A DNA stretch of 39,759 nucleotides from Candidatus Kaiserbacteria bacterium (GTDB taxonomy: Bacteria; Patescibacteriota; Minisyncoccia; Phycocordibacterales; Phycocordibacteraceae): NCBI GenBank assembly GCA_011322135.1, contig DRNP01000044.1, positions 1 to 39,759 on the forward strand. Reading direction: 5' to 3'. The notes under the pieces were generated by a model, which saw only the letters and a list, made by a program, of their open reading frames with translations, was not told the DNA's origin and ran no database searches. Within the stretch, counting starts at the first letter, position 1. Every line of letters begins with the position of its first letter. The translations under genes were made by a program, and so were the position numbers. Positions 2,274 through 37,852 of this stretch are shown here, piece after piece.

Positions 2274-3202
2274 AAACGTTTCTTAAAATCTTCTATCATT
2301 GATACTTCTTCCGGGTTTACTCCTCGACGTGTTGCAAGCTCATGTGCAACATGATGCATTACATACCATCTTCGTGAAAGTTTTGCAGCTCGAGTACCAC
2401 CAACAAGTGATATGTCCGTTACACTTCTGCCTCGTTCACGCATAAGCTCTGCAAATACAGACATACGACGTATCAAACGCGAATCATCTTCATCGTCGTG
2501 CAATAAAATAAAGCGCGCTATTGAGCCAACGCTCTCCGGAGCTGTCGTATCAAATGCTTGCATCTCGTTGTGATTCAGCTCCGGGAAAATATTCGCAATC
2601 GCAGGCATTTTCGCAGTTTCGTTTGTATGTATTTTAGATACCCAAGAAAGAAAACCGTTTCTGCGCGATGCATAATAAATAGGCAAGGAATCTTCCAAAA
2701 TATCTGCCAGGTTTTCCGCTTCTTTTAGTGCCGAAGCATCATCAAATGTCGCATCAGATAAAGCCGTGAGCAAATCCGAACGATCTAAAAGCACCAGCAA
2801 CGCTCGCAAAAGGAAAAAGAGTGCATTGCGTGGCTGAATATGAGAAGGCACTTGAACATATGGAACATTTGATTCTTTCGCAAAATCGAATAGCTCTCCG
2901 CCTGATGTTATAACAGCTAACGAAAAATTATTCTCTTTTGCTTTTCTTGCAAAAGAGATTGTTTCTGCGGTGTTGCCTGAATGAGATATCGCAATATATA
3001 GAGCATCTGTTTTAGCTCCTTCCGGGAGGTCGTAGTCGCGGTGTGTCGAAAGCGGTATTGTCGAATCCAGAAAACGTGTAGCGAAAGCCGGGAGCGCGGA
3101 CCCTCCCATTCCGCCGACCACGATGCTCGGTGCTTTTTTAACTGAACCGTTTTCAATATGTGGCTCACGAGTAAGTTCTTGCAATAAATCGTTGTATGTC
3201 AT
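2270..3202 (-). CDS. SIS-domain bifunctional phosphoglucose/phosphomannose isomerase-like protein
   Basis: GGMGGSALPA and ISHSGNTAET SIS motifs. Overlaps the downstream ROK kinase by 4 nt. Confidence 0.75.
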   Translation of the reverse strand: MTYNDLLQELTREPHIENGSVKKAPSIVVGGMGGSALPAFATRFLDSTIPLSTHRDYDLPEGAKTDALYIAISHSGNTAETISFARKAKENNFSLAVITSGGELFDFAKESNVPYVQVPSHIQPRNALFFLLRALLVLLDRSDLLTALSDATFDDASALKEAENLADILEDSLPIYYASRRNGFLSWVSKIHTNETAKMPAIANIFPELNHNEMQAFDTTAPESVGSIARFILLHDDEDDSRLIRRMSVFAELMRERGRSVTDISLVGGTRAAKLSRRWYVMHHVAHELATRRGVNPEEVSMIEDFKKRL

Positions 3203-4285: not shown

Positions 4286-4798
4286 TTACATCTTCTGTAA
4301 AGTCCTTATAATATCTAGCACTATTCCCAGTTCCATTTCTGGTGGACAGTTGCGATGCAACTCTTGTACTTCTTCCGGGGTCTTCAAAAGCGGAATCGCT
4401 TTTTTTACAAGTTCTATCCACTTTTGCATTACTGCAGAGTCCATTTCTGGTGGACATTTGTAATACAGATTCTTGGCTTCTTTCGGGGTCTTCAAACGTG
4501 GAATCGCTTCCCCTGTGAGTTCTATCCACCTATTTATTACTGCAGAGTCCATTTCTGGTGGACATTTGTAATACAGACTATTGGCTTCTTTCGGAGTTTT
4601 AAGAAGTGAGATAGCTTCTGTAGTGAGTTCTACCCACTTCTCCATTACCAATGGTTGTGTTTCTGCATTGCAACTTTTATGCCATTTCTTAGCTTCCTCT
4701 GGTGTTTTAAGTGATTCTATTAATCTTATAAGAGCTAATCTATCTTTAATGTACTCCTCATCTAAACCCAATAATTCAGAAATCTCCTTTGCATCCAT
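4286..4798 (-). CDS. hypothetical protein made of four 36-aa tandem repeats (KTPxEA..YYKCPPEMDSAV..WIEL..AI..L)
   Basis: The repeats are read directly in the translation. AAGGAGG lies upstream of ATG 4798. Confidence 0.65.
   Translation of the reverse strand: MDAKEISELLGLDEEYIKDRLALIRLIESLKTPEEAKKWHKSCNAETQPLVMEKWVELTTEAISLLKTPKEANSLYYKCPPEMDSAVINRWIELTGEAIPRLKTPKEAKNLYYKCPPEMDSAVMQKWIELVKKAIPLLKTPEEVQELHRNCPPEMELGIVLDIIRTLQKM
4289..4708. repeat. 108-bp-period coding tandem repeat (about 3.9 units)
   Basis: For example, cagagtccatttctggtggacatttgtaatacag recurs 108 nt apart (about 4437 and about 4545). Confidence 0.8.
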
Positions 4799-4967
4799 AA
4801 CAACCTCCTTTTGTTGTATTGATTAGAATCCTCCTTTTTAAGAACTGCAGTCTATATAGAAAATACAATTAAACATTGCCGATGTCAACGTCTTGTATAG
4901 AAATCGTACGATGGAGCATATACACGCTTTGTCGGGAGCACCATTGCATGGCAACGTTTAATTTAAA

Positions 4968-5549
4968 TTAGATTACCCCAAACTCGCGAAAGACTTTTTT
5001 ATAATGAGAAATTGTACGTCTTGCGAGCGTTTCAGAAAGCGCAAAAGCTGAGCCGGAGTGCGCAATCATATTACGTACTTTGTGTGCCTCCCAGGCATCA
5101 TCAAGAGAATCAAAATCCGCACGCTCTATTTGTTTAAGTTGTTCACCTATTGTTTCTCCTTTATATCCCTGACGAGTAAGCACCTCACCAAGTATAATAT
5201 CCGCTTCAATAATAGCTTGTCGCCAATCGTTTATATTTTCACCGGATATAAGTTCTTCAACTTGTTTCCAGCGTGGATTCTCACGAGGAGTATCTTCACT
5301 TATTTTCGGAAGAGGTCCGTATTTTTCTTTTTCTTTCCTGCGCACTTCTTCAATATGCATAGTTGAATAAACAATCACAAAAAGCGCTCCGGCAGATGCG
5401 AGATACCCGACCACTGTGATTATTTGCCATGTAGCGGTTATTATCGGATGCAATGCTCCGGTCGAAAGATGTGCATTTGTCGCCGCTTCATATAATGCGC
5501 GAAAAACATATTCAACATTGAGCGACGTGTATCCTGGAGGAGGCAACAT
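4968..5549 (-). CDS. hypothetical membrane-anchored protein
   Basis: 193-aa ORF with a central TM segment (IITVVGYLASAGALFVIVY) and a soluble C-terminal domain. No enzymatic motif recognised. Confidence 0.55.
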   Translation of the reverse strand: MLPPPGYTSLNVEYVFRALYEAATNAHLSTGALHPIITATWQIITVVGYLASAGALFVIVYSTMHIEEVRRKEKEKYGPLPKISEDTPRENPRWKQVEELISGENINDWRQAIIEADIILGEVLTRQGYKGETIGEQLKQIERADFDSLDDAWEAHKVRNMIAHSGSAFALSETLARRTISHYKKVFREFGVI

Positions 5550-5618
5550 GTTTTTAGTATAGCGCGTATTGACACACTCGGGTTGTGTCGTTGCACACTT
5601 CTTGTGGAATCTTAATAA

Positions 5619-7055
5619 CTAATCCAATTGAGTATTTTCAACTGCGCGCCCAACTGCAAAAAGCACGTCCTCCGCTTGGTGCGGTGCTGTAAACTGGATA
5701 CCGATAGGAAGCGGTTTCTCGTCGCGCTTTACCATTTTCATAGGAACAGAGATGGCGGGCATGCCTGTTAAGTTTGCTGTTACTGTAAAGATGTCCTCAA
5801 TGTACATTGCAACAGGATCATTACTTTTCTCGCCAAAACGAAAAGCCGGCGAAGGCGAAGTTGGCGTGGCAATGACATCGACCTTCTCAAAAGCATTATT
5901 GAATTCGTCAACGAGCACCGACCGTGCAGAATGAGCTTTCCTATAATAAGCATCAATATATCCTGAAGAAAGTACGAACGCTCCCAGCAAAATACGCCTC
6001 TGTACTTCCGGTCCAAATCCTTCCGAACGAGTCTTTATATAATCGTCCAATAATGTCTTACCGTGTTTTGAAAGCCCGTATCGCATTCCATCATACCTGG
6101 CAAAATTCGTAGATGCTTCCGCAGGCATTATTATGTAATAAATCGGAAGCGCGTAAGCATTGGTTGGAAGAGATACATCCACGATTGTGTGACCTTTTAA
6201 TTTGAGAGCTTCAAGAGTCTCATTAAACCTATTCAGCACGTCTTCATCAACACCTTTTTCTAAAATCGCTCTTGGAACTCCTATTCGAAGTGTCGAATTT
6301 ACTTCGCGCTTCGGATATAAATCATCTGGAATTGTTGTAGGGTCTTTCTCATCGCGACCGCGAAGCGCTTTAAACAAAATCTCCGAATCATCTACCGTTT
6401 TTGTTAAAGGACCAACCTGGTCGAGTGAAGATCCCATCGCCATAAGTCCGTATCTGGAAACAGCTCCATATGTTGGTTTTAAACCAACAACTCCGGTAAG
6501 CGATGCCGGTTGTCGGATTGACCCTCCCGTATCCGAACCAATCGATGCAATAGTCATATGCGCCGAAGTTGCCGCCGCCGAACCACCGGACGAACCGCCG
6601 GGGACACGATTTGTATCATGCGGATTTTTTGTTTTCCCAAATGCAGAAGTCTCTGTCGAGCTCCCCATTGCAAACTCGTCCATATTTGTACGTCCTAAAA
6701 ATAAAGCTCCTTCCGCGCGCATTTTTTCAATGACAGTGGCAGTGTAAGATGCTTTATAATTTTCCAACATTTTACTCGATGCGCTCGCGGTCTTTCCTTT
6801 AATCAAAATATTATCTTTTACAGCGATAGGTATTCCACATAAAATAGGTGCCTTGTCACCCTCCGTATCAATACGCTTTTGCGCATCGTCGATGGCTGTA
6901 TCATCAGTATCAAAAAGCTCCAGATACGCAAAAATATTATCGTTTTTTTCTTTAGCGACAAGACGGGTGGCGTTCCATAAATCGCGTACAGTAAACGCGC
7001 GCGCGCGAAGCGCGCGCGCCGCCTCTACGATCGTCATTTCATTTGCCTTCTTCAT
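5619..7055 (-). CDS. gatA: Glu/Asp-tRNA amidotransferase subunit A
   Basis: Amidase signature GGSSGGSAAA and full-length similarity to GatA. An alternative start is ATG 7037, just after the gatC stop. Confidence 0.92.
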   Translation of the reverse strand: MKKANEMTIVEAARALRARAFTVRDLWNATRLVAKEKNDNIFAYLELFDTDDTAIDDAQKRIDTEGDKAPILCGIPIAVKDNILIKGKTASASSKMLENYKASYTATVIEKMRAEGALFLGRTNMDEFAMGSSTETSAFGKTKNPHDTNRVPGGSSGGSAAATSAHMTIASIGSDTGGSIRQPASLTGVVGLKPTYGAVSRYGLMAMGSSLDQVGPLTKTVDDSEILFKALRGRDEKDPTTIPDDLYPKREVNSTLRIGVPRAILEKGVDEDVLNRFNETLEALKLKGHTIVDVSLPTNAYALPIYYIIMPAEASTNFARYDGMRYGLSKHGKTLLDDYIKTRSEGFGPEVQRRILLGAFVLSSGYIDAYYRKAHSARSVLVDEFNNAFEKVDVIATPTSPSPAFRFGEKSNDPVAMYIEDIFTVTANLTGMPAISVPMKMVKRDEKPLPIGIQFTAPHQAEDVLFAVGRAVENTQLD

Positions 7056-7341
7056 GTGAAAGTATTTGTTTTACGGAAAGAGAATTGCCCTTTCTTTTTG
7101 GAAACGCTTTTATAATTTCCTCTGTATCGACTCCGTCCTGTTTTTTGTAACAATCATCTCGAAATACATTATGTAAAAGCGGTACGGACGGTGTCTTATC
7201 AACATCTATCGTCAGCTCATTAAGCTGACCAACATACGCAATAATTCCATCAAGCTCTTTAGCTAATCTTGGGAGATTCTCGTCTGAAACCGAGAGTCGC
7301 GAAAGTTCTGCCAAATGTCGTATATCTTTTGCGGAAGCCAT
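7039..7341 (-). CDS. gatC: Glu/Asp-tRNA amidotransferase subunit C
   Basis: About 100 aa, with a LAELSRLSVSDENL..L..I..YV..L pattern, immediately upstream of gatA. Confidence 0.85.
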   Translation of the reverse strand: MASAKDIRHLAELSRLSVSDENLPRLAKELDGIIAYVGQLNELTIDVDKTPSVPLLHNVFRDDCYKKQDGVDTEEIIKAFPKRKGNSLSVKQILSHEEGK

Positions 7342-7356
7342 AATAGCACTACTCTA

Positions 7357-9363
<2,007 letters not shown>

Positions 9364-9882
9364 TTAATTCAAATCAGAATAGTGCATATCTATACCGCGC
9401 ACAGTAGTACGGCTTGATGCGGAGCAACTCCCATTGTCATACCCACTTGAGAAAAGATATGTCGTGCCCGGAGCTCCCTTTGGTTTAAATACGATTACAT
9501 TTGCACACGTATTTGCGTTCATCTTCATGTCGTGTATGGAATATTTATACCATTGTTTACTATTTCCGCTCGATACAGTTGGAGCTCCAAAGGAAAAAGT
9601 ATTACCTCCGCAAGATACACTGCCACCGGTTGCTCCGTTTACAGTACTAAACGCCATCTTCTGTTGGTCTGCATAGAGAACACACTCAAGCGCAGAGTCG
9701 GCGGAATAAAAAGCTTTTTGTGAAGAATTTTCGGTTGAAGCAAGCAATACTTGTTTATATCCAAGAGAACCAAGTGTTAGTCCTATTGAAAGTATTACCG
9801 ATACAAAAATAATGGTTATAAGTAGCGCAATACCAGACTCAGCAGAGTGTCGTCGTATTTTTTTTATTGAATCTTTCATCAT
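9364..9882 (-). CDS. PilX-like minor pilin / pilus assembly protein
   Basis: N-terminal hydrophobic helix SGIALLITIIFVSVILSIGL. Last gene of the pseudopilin operon. Confidence 0.5.
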   Translation of the reverse strand: MMKDSIKKIRRHSAESGIALLITIIFVSVILSIGLTLGSLGYKQVLLASTENSSQKAFYSADSALECVLYADQQKMAFSTVNGATGGSVSCGGNTFSFGAPTVSSGNSKQWYKYSIHDMKMNANTCANVIVFKPKGAPGTTYLFSSGYDNGSCSASSRTTVRGIDMHYSDLN

Positions 9883-9889
9883 ATATATT

Positions 9890-10504
9890 TTAATACCATG
9901 GTGTTAAATATCCTGTTACAGTCGATGTATACGTTTTGCCGTGCGTCATCCACGACACGGTTGAATCAATCTTTAAATCTGAATCGGAAATTTTAGTTGC
10001 TGATATAACACGTTTGAAATTTGTTTTGGTTCCCGTATTTTGAGTCGTATATTTCCCGCTCGTTGTGAGATACAGATCTCCACATGAAGTATCATTAATA
10101 CTACACACGGCTATCGAACCTGTTCCAAACCCTATTCCACTCATTAAAGAACTTGCATCTACCGAACAAGTATTATTTGTATTGCACCTCAAAATATTAT
10201 ACTCACCGCTATAAGAAGTATTGGTTGTAAAACCATTCCACCAATATGCCGGAGAGTTCGAATTGCAAGCAATACTATTACCACTATAACAATATTTAAG
10301 GTATGAATTATCGCGCATTACACGAGCAAACTCTACCCCCTCTTGCGCCAAGAAAGATCCTGTCATTTTATCTTGCGCTATTTTTGCGGCTTGAAGACTT
10401 TGCTCTGCAGAAAAAAACGGACCTGTAACAGCGATGGCAAGAATAGCAACAGCTACAAGTGTCTCTACCAACGTAAACCCTCTTTTTTGTTTTAATATTT
10501 TCAT
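9890..10504 (-). CDS. prepilin-type N-terminal cleavage/methylation domain protein (minor pilin)
   Basis: KRG|FTLVETLVAVAILAI class III signal peptide. Confidence 0.75.
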   Translation of the reverse strand: MKILKQKRGFTLVETLVAVAILAIAVTGPFFSAEQSLQAAKIAQDKMTGSFLAQEGVEFARVMRDNSYLKYCYSGNSIACNSNSPAYWWNGFTTNTSYSGEYNILRCNTNNTCSVDASSLMSGIGFGTGSIAVCSINDTSCGDLYLTTSGKYTTQNTGTKTNFKRVISATKISDSDLKIDSTVSWMTHGKTYTSTVTGYLTPWY

Positions 10505-22663: not shown

Positions 22664-22734
22664 CTCGTCGTCACGTGCTCGCTCCGCTCGCACGGCTCTG
22701 CGACGACTCGGTTCGAATCCCACCGTCTCGCGCA
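22664..22734 (+). repeat. module half B1: 3' half of the 159-nt tRNA-Ser-derived module, with a variant hairpin
   Basis: Its last 35 nt are identical to B3. It contains ggttcgaatcccaccgtctc, an inverted copy of the last 20 nt before the final CG of the tRNA-Ser at 27327-27411. Confidence 0.8.
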
Positions 22735-22784
22735 AAAACATAATCGCACGACGCATTCGCGTCGCGCTCTTTGTTTTGCGGAGA
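22700..22784 (+). repeat. left 85-bp exact direct repeat (partner at 27248-27332)
   Basis: Compared by hand, base for base. Both copies end in gcggaga, the reverse complement of the tRNA-Ser 3' terminus. Confidence 0.9.
22746..22777 (+). terminator. intrinsic terminator after B1
   Basis: cgacgc-attc-gcgtcg hairpin followed by ctctttgtttt. Confidence 0.6.
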
Positions 22785-22898: not shown

Positions 22899-22907
22899 TG
22901 GTATAAT
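22899..22907 (+). promoter_or_regulatory. extended -10 promoter (TGgTATAAT) for the RT leader
   Basis: tgg at 22899-22901 plus TATAAT at 22902-22907. TTGATA lies 12 nt upstream, so it is not a canonical -35. Confidence 0.45.
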
Positions 22908-22913
22908 ACCAGA

Positions 22914-23425
22914 TACAGCACCTTGAAACAGAGTGAAGTAAGCTTCAACGAATCGTCCTGTTACAGAGCATTTGCTCAACATCCCTTGTCTCATCGGTGC
23001 ATGGGGATTTTGTTTGTTCAGGCGCGCCGTTCATTCGACGTGACTGCTAACACTAGCCTGCTCATTGAGCTCGTCTAAGTTTTAGCGGTATCCTGACAGG
23101 AGACATCAGTCATTAAGATTGACATATCCATCCGGCTACAAGCGGTAATCCGTGAGGACTGCTACTCGTCCTGGTGTAACGCTACTCAGGACGAGTAGTT
23201 GTGCCTTGCGAATTACATAGTTGTAGCCGTTACTAGAATGGTCTCACTGTTTAATTTTGCAACGAGTATGAACGACTTAAAAAATCGAACGACGTTTACT
23301 TCAAGCGTTACACACAGTGAGACGGCAATAAGTCAAATTCTTGAAGAATTTTCTCAAGATGGTGTGCAAAGCATTCACCGTTCAACTCTCTCGGGAGCTG
23401 ATCAAGGTGATACTGCGCGCCATTT
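22914..23425 (+). ncRNA. candidate structured non-coding leader / RT-associated ncRNA
   Basis: About 510 nt between the promoter and the RT gene, with only one weak small ORF. It contains a 97-nt three-helix hairpin (23133-23229) and a 10-bp long-range stem (23241-23250 with 23314-23323). Confidence 0.5.
23133..23229 (+). other. 97-nt compound hairpin (msd-like)
   Basis: Outer stem cggctacaa/ttgtagccg (9 bp), middle stem gtaat/attac (5 bp), and inner perfect 12-bp stem ctactcgtcctg/caggacgagtag with a 13-nt loop. Confidence 0.6.
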
Positions 23426-23447
23426 TTGGCGCATAGCCGTCTCTTAG
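23268..23447 (+). CDS. possible small ORF (59 aa) overlapping the RT frame
   Basis: ATG 23268 has only a weak SD. The stop TAG at 23445-23447 lies 5 nt before RT ATG 23453. The RT frame is already open from 23411. Confidence 0.25.
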   Translation: MNDLKNRTTFTSSVTHSETAISQILEEFSQDGVQSIHRSTLSGADQGDTARHFWRIAVS

Positions 23448-23452
23448 CGTAT

Positions 23453-24460
23453 ATGCGCAAACACTACACCCACAAACATCCAAAGTTAAACCTACGCACA
23501 GAAAAAGATCTGCTGCATTTTTTAAATGCCCGGAAGACCGTAAAACTCAAAGGCAAAACTGTCAGGAGGCAAGTAGCAACTAAGGATCTGTCATATCTCG
23601 ATAAAAACTCCCGCAGTGACTGGAACGATCACCCTTCAGAATCTAAGCCGGAAAATGGAAAATACGTTCGCTATATCAAACAGGGCTCGACACTAGATAT
23701 TTCAAACAGAAGGCTAAACGCCGCACTCAAACAAACTTTAGACAAGAAGGTGCCAAGCATATTCTACGGGTCAGTCTCGAAAAAAAGTCACATACAAGCC
23801 TCAAGGGCGCTGTGCAATGGGAAAAGCACCGTCATCATATCGCTGGACGTCACTAGATTCTTTGAGTCAGTGTCGCTGGCGCGAATCTTTAGGTTTTTTC
23901 GTAAAGCGGGATGTTCTACCGAGATAGCAGATATACTTGTCGAGCTCACCTGTGTACCTCTCGGTGCGAAAGAACATCCTCAGTCCGGCTTCTCAATCGC
24001 GCGCGGTTTCCCCACCTCACCGCGCCTAGCGCTGTGGGCAACATTCGAGATATTCGTGAAGTTAAATCGTATTTTACAAAAGCGTTATGGGCACTTGTCG
24101 CCAAAACTCGTGGTATTTGTGGATGATGTCGGTATTTCACTAAAGAACTCCACCCCAGAAGAGATAGAAGAAATAAAAGCACTTTCGTTTGAAACAATAG
24201 AGAGTGACAAAAATGGTATTCATTTAGTGGTACACAAGGAAGCTCCAAAGTTAAAAGTCCAGTCTATAGACCAAAATGCAGAACATCTCGGTCTTGTGAT
24301 AGGAAAAAATAGTTTGTCGCCAAGCTTTGAAACACGGCACAAAATAGGTTATGTGAAAGCTCAGCTAAGTAAGCAGACGTTATCGACTGAAAATCGGGAC
24401 AGAGCCCGAAAAAACAAACGTGGTTTAATGAACTACAAACGTTCGGTGTCCAATGGCTAG
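23453..24460 (+). CDS. RT-only reverse transcriptase (retron/Abi/UG-like); alternative TTG start at 23426
   Basis: RT1-2 GKYVRYIKQGSTLDISNRRLNAALKQTL; RT3 VIISLDVTRFFESV; RT4 ARGFPTSPRLA; RT5 VVFVDDVG (nt 24116-24127); RT7 HLGLVIG. No additional domain. Confidence 0.8.
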   Translation: MRKHYTHKHPKLNLRTEKDLLHFLNARKTVKLKGKTVRRQVATKDLSYLDKNSRSDWNDHPSESKPENGKYVRYIKQGSTLDISNRRLNAALKQTLDKKVPSIFYGSVSKKSHIQASRALCNGKSTVIISLDVTRFFESVSLARIFRFFRKAGCSTEIADILVELTCVPLGAKEHPQSGFSIARGFPTSPRLALWATFEIFVKLNRILQKRYGHLSPKLVVFVDDVGISLKNSTPEEIEEIKALSFETIESDKNGIHLVVHKEAPKLKVQSIDQNAEHLGLVIGKNSLSPSFETRHKIGYVKAQLSKQTLSTENRDRARKNKRGLMNYKRSVSNG

Positions 24461-25440: not shown

Positions 25441-25620
25441 TCAACGAATATAATCAAGAGCTTAGGCGATTTTGGAGAGAGTGTCAATCGTTGGATTTTG
25501 GTTCGTGCCATTTTCTATCTTTACAATGGTATTGAGAGACAAATCAGCAAGGCGGGCGACTCTCTCAAGAGAGTAACCTTTTTCGGCACGTATCTTTTTT
25601 TAATTATTCGCTATGCTCAT
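25441..25620 (-). pseudogene. XRE-family HTH regulator interrupted by two in-frame TAA codons
   Basis: Minus-strand translation: MSIANN*KKIRAEKGYSLERVARLADLSLNTIVKIENGTNQNPTIDTLSKIA*ALDYIR*. This is an otherwise intact HTH_3-type sequence with no frameshift. Confidence 0.7.
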
Positions 25621-25787
25621 GGTGAGATTATATAATTTAGTATATAGATTACAGTATAAAGTATGAAAGCTTTATATCTAAATTATAGCTGTTTATTACG
25701 ATTTTGCACTGAATGTGAGATGCATGGAGATAAATCCTTACAAATTCTATAAAAAGTAGTGTACGAAATGTGCGCTACTTTCATTTT

Positions 25788-25946
25788 GCGGAGAACAAGT
25801 TGTGGGCTTCGGTCACTCTCGCGGGTTTTTCTTTCACGCTTTGCGTTCATAAAAACCTCGCTCCATTGACCGCCACTCGTCGTCACTTGTTCGCTTTGCT
25901 CACAAGGCTTCGCGACGACTCGGTTCGAATTCCACCGTCTCGCGCA
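25788..25946 (+). repeat. module copy 2 (A2-B2), 159 nt
   Basis: It has 4 substitutions relative to copy 3. One of them (gccttg to gctttg) turns a C-G pair of the inner hairpin into a U-G pair. Confidence 0.85.
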
Positions 25947-27083: not shown

Positions 27084-27123
27084 AGAGCACGACGCGCCTT
27101 CGGCGCGTCGTGCTCTTTGTTTT
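27084..27123 (+). terminator. strong hairpin plus T-run preceding module copy 3
   Basis: agagcacgacgcgcc-ttc-ggcgcgtcgtgctct followed by ttgtttt. It is preceded by a degenerate B-like remnant (about 27029-27067). Confidence 0.6.
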
Positions 27124-27282
27124 GCGGAGAACAAGTTATGGGCTTCGGTCACTCTCGCGGGTTTTTCTTTCACGCTTTGCGCTCATAAAAACCTCGCTCC
27201 ATTGACCGCCACTCGTCGTCACTTGTTCGCCTTGCTCACAAGGCTTCGCGACGACTCGGTTCGAATCCCACCGTCTCGCGCA
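27124..27282 (+). repeat. module copy 3 (A3-B3), 159 nt, intact
   Basis: It starts GCGGAGA and ends TCTCGCGCA, a possible end-pairing. It has internal stems GAACAAG/CTTGTTC, GGGTTTTT/AAAAACCT, GTCGTC/GACGAC and GCCTTG/CAAGGC. Confidence 0.85.
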
Positions 27283-27293
27283 AAAACATAATC

Positions 27294-27325
27294 GCACGAC
27301 GCATTCGCGTCGCGCTCTTTGTTTT
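27294..27325. terminator. bidirectional terminator between module 3 and tRNA-Ser
   Basis: Same hairpin as at 22746-22777, with T-runs on both strands. Confidence 0.6.
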
Positions 27326-27326
27326 G

Positions 27327-27411
27327 CGGAGACGGTGGGATTCGAACCCACGAGGGTGTTAACCCTACTTCGTTAGCAGTGAAGCGCTTTCGACCACTCA
27401 GCCACGTCTCC
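27327..27411 (-). tRNA. tRNA-Ser (anticodon GCT), class II with long variable arm, no encoded CCA
   Basis: Manual fold: GGAGACG acceptor, anticodon loop CTGCTAA, variable arm TAGGGTTAACACCCTCG, and T-arm GTGGG-TTCGAAT-CCCAC. Confidence 0.9.
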
Positions 27412-37753: not shown

Positions 37754-37777
37754 TACACATAGAAATGTTTATGCTTG

Positions 37778-37852
37778 TCCGCCCGCTTGGACTCGAACCA
37801 AGGACCCTGGAGGTATAAGCTCCATGCTCTAAACCAACTGAGCTACGGGCGG
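37778..37852 (-). tRNA. tRNA-Ile with anticodon TAT (UAU)
   Basis: Manual fold: CCGCCCG/CGGGCGG acceptor, D-arm GCTC..GAGC, anticodon stem TGGAG/CTCCA with loop CTTATAC, and T-arm CTTGG-TTCGAGT-CCAAG. Confidence 0.8.

Follow-up and report, generated by a model that had tools for sequence, protein, structure and literature searches.

A reverse transcriptase gene and its structured leader RNA in a Kaiserbacteria contig: a probable divergent, HTH-less relative of type VI retrons

A 39,759-nt stretch of DNA from Candidatus Kaiserbacteria (assembly GCA_011322135.1, contig DRNP01000044.1; hereafter the window) carries a compact reverse transcriptase (RT) gene on its forward strand. The gene is preceded by a promoter and by a long structured leader RNA in which a small open reading frame (ORF) is embedded. 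A sequence-only reading of this DNA had proposed an RT–non-coding RNA (ncRNA) system outside the described classes. When the locus was compared with its relatives and with hidden Markov model (HMM) sets, one part of this proposal stood, namely a self-contained RT–RNA module of retron type, and the other did not, because the RT falls with type VI retrons, though on a long divergent branch. The elements of the module are:

22899-22907, + strand: extended -10 box TGGTATAAT; TGnTA(T/C)A(A/G)T kept in 9/9 distinct homologous loci
22914-23452, + strand: structured leader RNA, ~540 nt; non-coding 5′ part plus embedded small ORF, up to the RT start codon
22934-22942, + strand: a1/a2-like long-range helix, 5′ strand UGAAGUAAG; pairs with 23295-23303
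22956-23101, + strand: domain I; closing helix 22956-22962/23095-23101, near-invariant hairpins 22966-23014, variable segment 23030-23094
23134-23228, + strand: domain II; long hairpin of helices H7-H9 with a near-invariant perfect 12-bp stem CUACUCGUCCUG/CAGGACGAGUAG
23173-23182, + strand: putative pseudoknot strand 1, domain II apical loop GUGUAACGCU; 10-nt complementarity to 23304-23313
23268-23447, + strand: small ORF, 59 codons plus stop; positional equivalent of the type VI small protein (SP) gene
23295-23303, + strand: a1/a2-like helix, 3′ strand UUUACUUCA; inside small-ORF codons 10-12
23304-23313, + strand: putative pseudoknot strand 2 AGCGUUACAC; directly 3′ of a2, small-ORF codons 13-16
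23312-23450, + strand: domain III; helix 12 GAGACGGC/GCCGUCUC (23319-23326/23436-23443) closes three further covarying helices over the remaining small ORF
23453-24460, + strand: RT gene, 335 aa; Pfam RVT_1, PADLOC RT_VI

The RT gene and its structured leader

The RT frame is open from a TTG at 23426, and the ATG at 23453 is the start that is kept in all relatives and picked by gene callers. The compact protein matches Pfam RVT_1 (E = 2e-8) and has no fused or extra domain. The ORF, the RVT_1 match and an AlphaFold2 (AF2) model agree with the sequence-only reading of an RT-only gene ending at 24460 with its catalytic FVDD at 24116-24127. The AF2 model, which took 37 relatives as input, reached a predicted local distance difference test score (pLDDT) of 93.3 and a predicted template modelling score (pTM) of 0.88. 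Retron RTs have an NAxxH motif before RT1 and a VTG triplet in RT7. The HLG that had been noted in place of VTG is present, and proved to be a family-wide trait, invariant among the relatives described below. In pairwise comparisons among relatives, the ratio of non-synonymous to synonymous differences (pN/pS) of the RT was 0.26, with saturated synonymous sites (pS ~0.8), and the mean pairwise difference per codon position was 0.27/0.19/0.57, the third position being the most variable. Judged by these substitution patterns, the RT is under purifying selection.

A word-indexed protein search returned 38 RT relatives, eight of them with 53-70% identity to the window RT (the close clade) and the remainder with 29-37%. 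The close relatives come from Paceibacterota and Kaiserbacteria metagenome-assembled genomes (MAGs) and from metagenome contigs, and those in NCBI are labelled ‘hypothetical protein’; an identical RT protein with the same neighbours lies on a hydrothermal-vent metagenome contig. At all close loci the same ~540-nt sequence precedes the RT, from just past the -10 box to an invariant CTCTTAGCGTATATG whose last letters are the RT start codon. DNA farther upstream and every neighbouring gene are unrelated between these loci, and therefore the conserved unit consists of promoter, leader and RT only. In agreement, an all-against-all comparison of neighbouring ORFs found no gene kept beside the RT in the close clade. 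This includes the 3′ side, where no co-oriented gene is conserved across loci, consistent with the earlier observation that no co-oriented effector gene follows the RT. An exact-pattern scan for the leader core in JGI metagenome contigs recovered one locus, a duplicate of the most divergent close relative (L007), and IMG/VR contained no relatives.

The wider family is discrete. A family profile searched against 1.84 billion representative proteins found 70 clusters at E ≤ 1e-30 followed by a gap, with full-length members scoring at least 150 bits and proteins outside at most 87. A scan of one genome per GTDB species gave 48 loci, nearly all in Patescibacteria, the few others being in Bdellovibrionales, Gammaproteobacteria, Planctomycetota and Micrarchaeota MAGs. 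Thus an RT family of ~70 clusters at 50% identity is spread through Patescibacteria (the candidate phyla radiation, CPR), in 48 species-level genomes. Published defence surveys have barely sampled it, since the published type VI tree holds two such RTs (Woykebacteria and Levybacteria), both on long branches.

The extended -10 promoter predicted by the sequence-only reading is kept in every distinct locus compared. Sequence conservation starts 7-8 nt 3′ of the box, from which we infer that transcription begins at ~22913-22917. A consensus promoter scan missed the box, there being no -35 match, so the promoter call rests on its conservation across loci.

The leader is also highly structured, as had been claimed. 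The segment 22914-23455 has a minimum free energy (MFE) of -187 kcal/mol, with z = -5.66 against shuffles. An alignment of ten leaders, nine of them distinct, was folded with RNAalifold, which gave 123 pairs, 33 with compensatory changes. The structure named in the feature list is this fold with the register of one helix replaced, and 95.2% of its cells are paired. Thirty-three of its pairs change on both sides, compared with 13.0±2.3 in shuffles (0/500 reached the observed number), and controls in which partners were slid by 1-3 columns showed only 3-9 both-side changes. Both the sequence conservation and the covariation that the sequence-only reading had suggested looking for beside homologous RTs were therefore found.

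That reading had detected no convincing a1/a2 end repeats, which in retrons enclose the msr-msd RNA and place its priming guanosine. Comparison of the leaders revealed an a1/a2-like helix of nine pairs (22934-22942/23295-23303) that is 100% paired in the alignment and has two compensatory changes (window, A-U to G-C; L008, U-A to C-G). Inspection by eye showed that L007 keeps the helix too, through a G-C to A-U change that is masked by an alignment gap. This helix is the replaced register: the 5′-3′ helix as RNAalifold drew it (columns 9-18 paired with 530-539) is mismatched in just the two sequences that diverge most, and it was swapped since the chosen register carries compensatory changes. 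In the RNAalifold register the 5′ tail of the leader, CUUGAAACAG (22922-22931), can pair with 23296-23305, the a2 segment, with mismatches in the window and L007. It could be a mutually exclusive alternative conformation, i.e. a switch.

Between the two strands of the long-range helix lie domains I and II. Just 5′ of the variable segment of domain I there are inserts of 36 nt in L007 and 71 nt in L008, and L007 has another ~30 nt within it. By analogy only, with Retron-Sen3 (below), this segment (23030-23094) is a candidate reverse-transcription template (msd). Domain II, folded alone, has an MFE of -57.7 kcal/mol and z = -7.9. The complementarity between its apical loop and the stretch directly 3′ of a2 occurs at a single site in every leader, and in L007 both strands are changed together (GCGAUGCUGA/UUGGCAUCGC). 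We read it as a 10-bp pseudoknot. In domain III, helix 12 has compensatory changes in 4/8 pairs with 100% of cells paired, and helices 13-16 covary too. Rfam had no family matching the leader at gathering or permissive E-value thresholds, and a search with nhmmer and a leader profile found no second copy in the window.

The sequence-only reading considered the leader to be free of any convincing ORF, and here it needs revision. The frame at 23268-23447 is open over 57-59 codons in 9/9 distinct leaders, compared with 2-6 stops in each of the other two frames, and every indel has a length divisible by three. The stop and the RT ATG that follows it are 5 nt apart within an invariant CUCUUAGCGUAUAUG context, and in the window clade the ORF ends in CGTAGCCGCCTCTTAG. 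The start codon lies within a small hairpin (23269-23275/23285-23291), codons 10-16 supply a2 and the target of the pseudoknot, and domain III takes in the remainder. Mean pairwise differences per codon position were 0.36/0.33/0.21, so that the third position is the least variable; pN/pS was 1.25, with pS of 0.25-0.35. Because of these two patterns, constraint is taken to act mainly on the RNA, with the frame kept open and the peptide not visibly conserved. Pfam and PADLOC had no match for the leader small ORFs.

Relationship to type VI retrons

Type VI retrons are defined by an RT clade, a Cro/C1 helix-turn-helix (HTH) gene (~78% of entries) and, in some, the small protein SP. They are the least understood retron type, and their mechanism has been addressed only in preprints of 2025-2026. 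In Retron-Vpa2 (bioRxiv 10.1101/2025.10.22.683967), a ~470-nt ‘hybrid RNA’ holds the msr-msd as well as the SP coding sequence; SP is a translationally repressed toxin, the HTH protein restrains reverse transcription, and phage-induced multicopy single-stranded DNA (msDNA) derepresses SP. In Retron-Sen3 (bioRxiv 10.64898/2026.04.27.721009), single-stranded DNA (ssDNA) is constitutive and the HTH protein is an antitoxin that neutralises SP; its RNA shows covariation in the SP coding region, and a long stem-loop, SL3, has a variable centre that is the candidate template. The preprints thus give different answers as to the level of control, translational for Vpa2 and post-translational, by way of HTH, for Sen3. 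Our literature search found nothing on retrons in Patescibacteria.

Among PADLOC models, RT_VI was the best for the window RT (E = 7e-26, 89 bits over nearly the full profile), followed by a model with 46 bits. RT_VI matched all 37 relatives and gave the lowest E-value of any model in the family (8.8e-30; next RT_IV, 5.3e-19). In the reverse direction, the ten best full-length proteins beyond the family gap were all canonical RT_VI (189-267 bits). The type VI affiliation is therefore reciprocal. For calibration we used two canonical type VI plasmid loci, from Aeromonas (HTH and RT) and Bacteroides (small ORF and RT). Their RTs scored 329 and 279 bits on RT_VI, respectively, and the Aeromonas HTH scored 114 bits on HTH_VI. 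The window RT is 21-22% identical to these canonical RTs, which share just 25% with each other.

Structure comparison pointed to retrons as well. In a Foldseek search of the AF2 model against the PDB, ranks 1-11 were retron RTs, with Ec86 first (E = 2e-12, TM 0.66/0.70), and the RTs of G2L4, group II introns, DRT9 (26th), diversity-generating retroelements (DGR) and DRT2 (29th) ranked below all of them, TM being lower for DRT9 and DRT2. Two further sequence searches gave weak matches: the PDB returned only faint retron and group II matches to the RT, and the best NCBIfam model was that of the retron St85 RT, at 39.5 bits versus a cut-off of 235. Two other assignments were tried and rejected. 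Membership of the UG/DRT groups was dropped as the best such PADLOC models (UG17 with 30 bits in the window; Drt3a, 4e-13 at best in the family) fell far below RT_VI. A group II intron RT/maturase was dropped given the absence of an Rfam intron match, a TIGR04416 score of 24.7 bits versus a cut-off of 300, and a length of only 335 aa.

The more distant relatives, with 30-35% identity to the window RT and the shared motifs HLG and F/YVDD, form a sister clade with a type VI gene arrangement. At 33 of the 36 loci with enough upstream sequence, an ORF of 104-119 aa (mostly ~107 aa) overlaps the RT start. It matches Pfam HTH_3 (1e-13 to 1e-16), and its best PADLOC model is HTH_VI (1e-12 to 1e-15). 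Directly 5′ of this HTH gene, 31 of the 33 loci have a small ORF, 47-74 codons long (47-60 in most), with a conserved GTAGYCGCCCTTTAG at its end. The Woykebacteria and Levybacteria entries of the published tree probably belong to this clade (L013-L054).

The leaders of the two clades share an architecture. In all HTH-bearing loci, a strand inside the small ORF pairs with the 3′ end of the ORF over 7-15 bp, with widely differing sequences. For the stretch immediately 5′ of this pairing, a pseudoknot-type partner of at least 8 nt, located 82-113 nt before the small-ORF ATG, was found in 24 of 32 HTH-bearing loci, compared with 2.4±1.5 loci (maximum 8) in a shuffled-target control. In the window, the corresponding loop precedes the small-ORF ATG by 95 nt. 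For L035 and L042, as for window domain II, a long perfect hairpin presents the partner in its apical loop. Shared motifs are GTAGYCGCC..TTAG at the 3′ end and, in some loci, CATAGCACCTT at the 5′ end. The shared pseudoknot position and ORF-enclosing helix argue that the window leader is a homologue of the HTH-bearing, type VI-like leaders.

Promoters differ between the clades. Located ~500-560 nt 5′ of the HTH ATG, those of the sister clade have a TTGACA followed by a TATAC-N4-GTATA palindrome that runs into the -10 element (GTATAAT). The palindrome is probably an HTH operator for autoregulation. The window clade has neither a -35 box nor the palindrome, only the extended -10.

Searches with 34 HTH_VI-type proteins (tblastn and hmmsearch) found no such gene beside the RT in any close-clade locus. 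In this clade the structured RNA takes up the entire leader and, with HTH lacking, the small ORF runs right up to the RT. One tblastn match in the window (25471-25599, E = 0.003) was dropped, as the one frame read there is not an ORF and the HTH profile is silent. A neighbour-joining (NJ) tree rooted on the two canonical type VI RTs recovered the Patescibacteria family as monophyletic and the close clade in 100/100 bootstraps. Given that both the outgroup and the sister clade carry HTH, loss of this gene in the window clade is the parsimonious, though unproven, reading. A second HTH-less arrangement was found in a Saccharibacteria locus from sheep ileum (L052, 2772-3987), whose RT is 26% identical to the window RT and in which 7 nt separate the RT ATG from the end of a preceding 68-aa ORF that carries the family motif ELWRSYN. 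Its HTH-less state arose independently of that of the window clade. In L044, a 51-aa HTH remnant (2835-2987, 88% identical to the L032 HTH) adjoins a 228-aa minus-strand ORF, and it seems that inserted DNA has interrupted the gene. The missing HTH of L027 was discounted as an artefact because a run of N in the record (~2870-3000) covers the HTH position.

Interpretation and competing explanations

We consider that the locus probably belongs to the type VI retron lineage as a divergent member without HTH, on a branch nearly confined to Patescibacteria. RT_VI as the best model, nearest outside proteins that are all RT_VI, an HTH_VI gene in the sister clade and shared leader features together place the RT inside a described clade, where the sequence-only reading had expected a lineage of its own. 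Unusual features are the two-part form lacking HTH, the missing NAxxH and VTG motifs, the conserved pseudoknot and a leader sequence with no Rfam match; they do not make it a wholly new class.

The likeness to type VI retrons (Mestre et al. 2020; Vpa2, Sen3) extends over the whole module. The RT has type VI as its best profile and nearest neighbours, and is likewise RT-only with a length of ~300-335 aa; FVDD is shared with the Bacteroides type VI RT. The leader resembles the type VI ‘hybrid RNA’: upstream, on the same transcript, there is a structured RNA some 470-540 nt long, its embedded ORF of ~50-60 codons has a sequestered start and covariation inside the coding part, long-range pairings join the 5′ non-coding part to the ORF region, and no separate effector gene follows downstream. 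With the HTH-bearing Patescibacteria relatives the window locus has in common the RT family, the small ORF and a leader built from the 5′ motif, the long hairpin with pseudoknot loop, the ORF-closing helix and the 3′ motif.

Several differences are equally clear. Unlike type VI retrons generally, the window locus lacks the Cro/C1 HTH gene so that its small ORF abuts the RT, and its host is of Patescibacteria type, not a proteobacterium or Bacteroides. In the HTH-bearing relatives, an HTH_VI gene stands between small ORF and RT, and the promoter has a -35 box and palindrome. The SP gene is among the most conserved parts of the Sen3 lineage, whereas the window peptide lacks protein-type selection. 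In Vpa2 the msd loop and the riboregulator loop carry 7-nt direct repeats, whereas the corresponding window elements are complementary in the RNA and form the putative pseudoknot. Other RT systems are more distant. Canonical retrons (Ec86/Eco1) have the nearest RT fold, an upstream RNA in one operon and an inverted repeat that closes the RNA, to which the a1/a2-like helix of the window may correspond, but the window locus has no effector protein gene, an RNA that is several times longer and holds an ORF, and neither NAxxH nor VTG. DRT2 and DRT9 also combine an RT-only gene with a structured ncRNA upstream, but the window RNA has no sequence or family relation to theirs.

A number of results weigh against a type VI assignment or limit how far it can be taken. 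The window RT scored 89 bits on RT_VI compared with 279-329 for the canonical RTs and is ~21% identical to them, which makes it a very divergent relative. It reads QASRAL and HLG where the aligned canonical type VI RTs read NANAH/NARLH and VTG/ITG, and the whole Patescibacteria family, HTH-bearing members included, has QASRAL/AAKYL-type sequences for NAxxH and HLG for VTG/ITG. Pfam and PADLOC found no HTH ORF in or near the window leader, and the HTH-bearing CPR clade was monophyletic in just 52/100 bootstraps of a simple NJ tree. At the RNA level, an nhmmer search with the window-type leader profile found nothing in HTH-bearing loci; a covariance model of the 5′ domain hit the right place in L030 and L023 weakly (E = 0.067 and 2.1) along with spurious matches, and we do not count it as proof. 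The covariation itself comes from nine distinct sequences that are related to each other. The small ORF shows no protein-type selection and no obvious Shine-Dalgarno sequence precedes it, and for these two reasons a toxic peptide is only a possibility. Finally, the Levybacteria type VI retron, the only CPR one tested in E. coli, yielded no detectable ssDNA; the other five type VI retrons of the same census gave none in E. coli either.

If the locus is a type VI relative, a working model can be drawn by analogy with Vpa2 and Sen3. The RT would bind the leader RNA and copy an internal segment into ssDNA. As template, the variable part of domain I is favoured over the domain II hairpin, because it resembles the variable centre of Sen3 SL3. 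Translation of the small ORF, and of the RT coupled to it, would be kept low in the resting state by the a1/a2-like helix, the pseudoknot and the start hairpin. Translation of the RT may be coupled to termination of the small ORF, since the stop lies 5 nt upstream of the RT ATG and there is no Shine-Dalgarno sequence for the RT ATG itself. On phage infection, either complementary DNA (cDNA) would accumulate or the RNA would remodel, opening the pseudoknot or the start hairpin. The opened fold would allow translation of the small ORF; a toxic peptide, additional RT, or both would result, and growth of the infected cell would cease. Control would rest on the RNA alone, because the HTH partner, which restrains the RT or neutralises the peptide in studied systems, is missing. 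An HTH-less lineage with only an RNA, its embedded ORF and an RT is a natural minimal case for what the RNA can do by itself, and the family-wide covarying pseudoknot and ORF-enclosing helix offer precise, testable handles on RNA control.

A bolder version of the type VI reading, which we consider rather unlikely, is that the Patescibacteria family, and foremost this HTH-less clade, is a minimal system of one RT and one RNA that works by a distinct mechanism descended from type VI, with the pseudoknot-gated ORF as both sensor and output, and primes or templates its cDNA differently. Different priming or templating is possible because the family lacks NAxxH and VTG. If true, there would be no 2′-5′ branched msDNA, or the cDNA would serve only to open the pseudoknot.

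It is unlikely that the family represents a separate RT–ncRNA class that resembles type VI through common RT ancestry only, makes no branched msDNA and uses its RNA in another way. The very low RT_VI score relative to canonical members, the loss of both retron motifs across the CPR family, a leader outside Rfam, the clear score gap (at least 150 bits inside versus at most 87 outside) and the lack of ssDNA from the one tested CPR type VI retron would all suit such a class. However, the nearest outside relatives are exclusively RT_VI, the sister clade has an HTH_VI partner in the type VI position, and a small ORF within a structured RNA is the published type VI design. The identity to canonical RTs (21-22%) is hardly below the 25% between two canonical RTs, and missing basal ssDNA is typical of type VI retrons generally.

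Somewhat less probable still is that the leader is a cis-regulatory 5′ untranslated region (UTR) that tunes RT translation by termination-reinitiation and is not reverse-transcribed, the RT having its template elsewhere. A stop so close to the RT ATG (5 nt), in an invariant context that lacks a Shine-Dalgarno sequence, a frame that stays open although its peptide is unconserved, and the base-pairing of the start codon and ORF body are what such a leader would show. Yet an attenuator needs much less than a 540-nt leader that has three conserved domains and, far from the ORF, near-invariant hairpins, and no other conserved partner or template lies beside the RT between loci. Moreover, the related type VI RNA is both bound by its RT and used as template. 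The two roles are compatible.

That the locus is a decaying, non-working type VI remnant left by HTH loss is very improbable: the HTH gene is absent, the small peptide is under no evident selection and the islet has no integrase and looks degraded, but the RT is intact (pN/pS 0.26), the leader is more conserved than RT synonymous sites (pS 0.25-0.35 over the small-ORF stretch versus ~0.8) and carries compensatory changes, the promoter is conserved, and nine distinct versions with RTs 53-70% identical persist across genomes and contexts.

Genomic context and mobility

On the 3′ side of the RT, on the opposite strand, the window encodes a DUF6804 protein, a 210-aa protein of unknown function and an NYN-domain protein. 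The sequence-only reading had placed the locus in a tRNA-flanked islet, and 27-nt att-like repeats of the tRNA-Ser 3′ end bear this out:

22758-22784, + strand: left att-like direct repeat, 27 nt; duplicates the 3′ end and flank of tRNA-Ser(GCT)
25768-25794 (degenerate), 27104-27130, 27306-27332: further repeat copies, sequence CGCGTCG(C/T)GCTCTTTGTTTTGCGGAGA

The tRNA-Ser(GCT) gene (27326-27411, - strand) overlaps at its 3′ end with the copy at 27306-27332. By appearance, the repeats are att duplications that delimit two or three islets in tandem: one carries the RT module, DUF6804 and the 210-aa gene, another the NYN gene, and one is empty. There is no integrase gene between 22552 and 27411.

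Three relatives bear on a possible link of the module with defence and mobility. In L007, a Kaiserbacteria-type locus, it lies between a RelB/YafQ toxin-antitoxin pair and a SocA/Panacea-domain gene (2420-2980 and 6018-6605), a neighbourhood that by its gene content is of the defence-island type. In L001 and L002 (~4400-10400), which are two MAGs with different genes upstream of the shared element, the module stands with a 74-aa gene, an N6/N4 methyltransferase, two genes of unknown function and a large serine recombinase, a grouping that points to a mobile element as carrier of the RT module. The toxin-antitoxin neighbours in L007 and the recombinase element at two sites fit a mobile, defence-type module.

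Two further observations concern tRNA sequences in the window. A piece resembling a tRNA 3′ half (…GACTCGGTTCGAATCCCACCGTCTCGCGCA) occurs once per ~200-nt repeat unit (22700-22733, 25912-25945 and 27248-27281, + strand); over 20 nt, its T-arm segment matches that of the genuine tRNA-Ser exactly, in opposite orientation, and no tRNA is called there by ARAGORN. At 37777-37852 (- strand) lies a tRNA-Ile gene with anticodon TAT, an uncommon bacterial way to read AUA.

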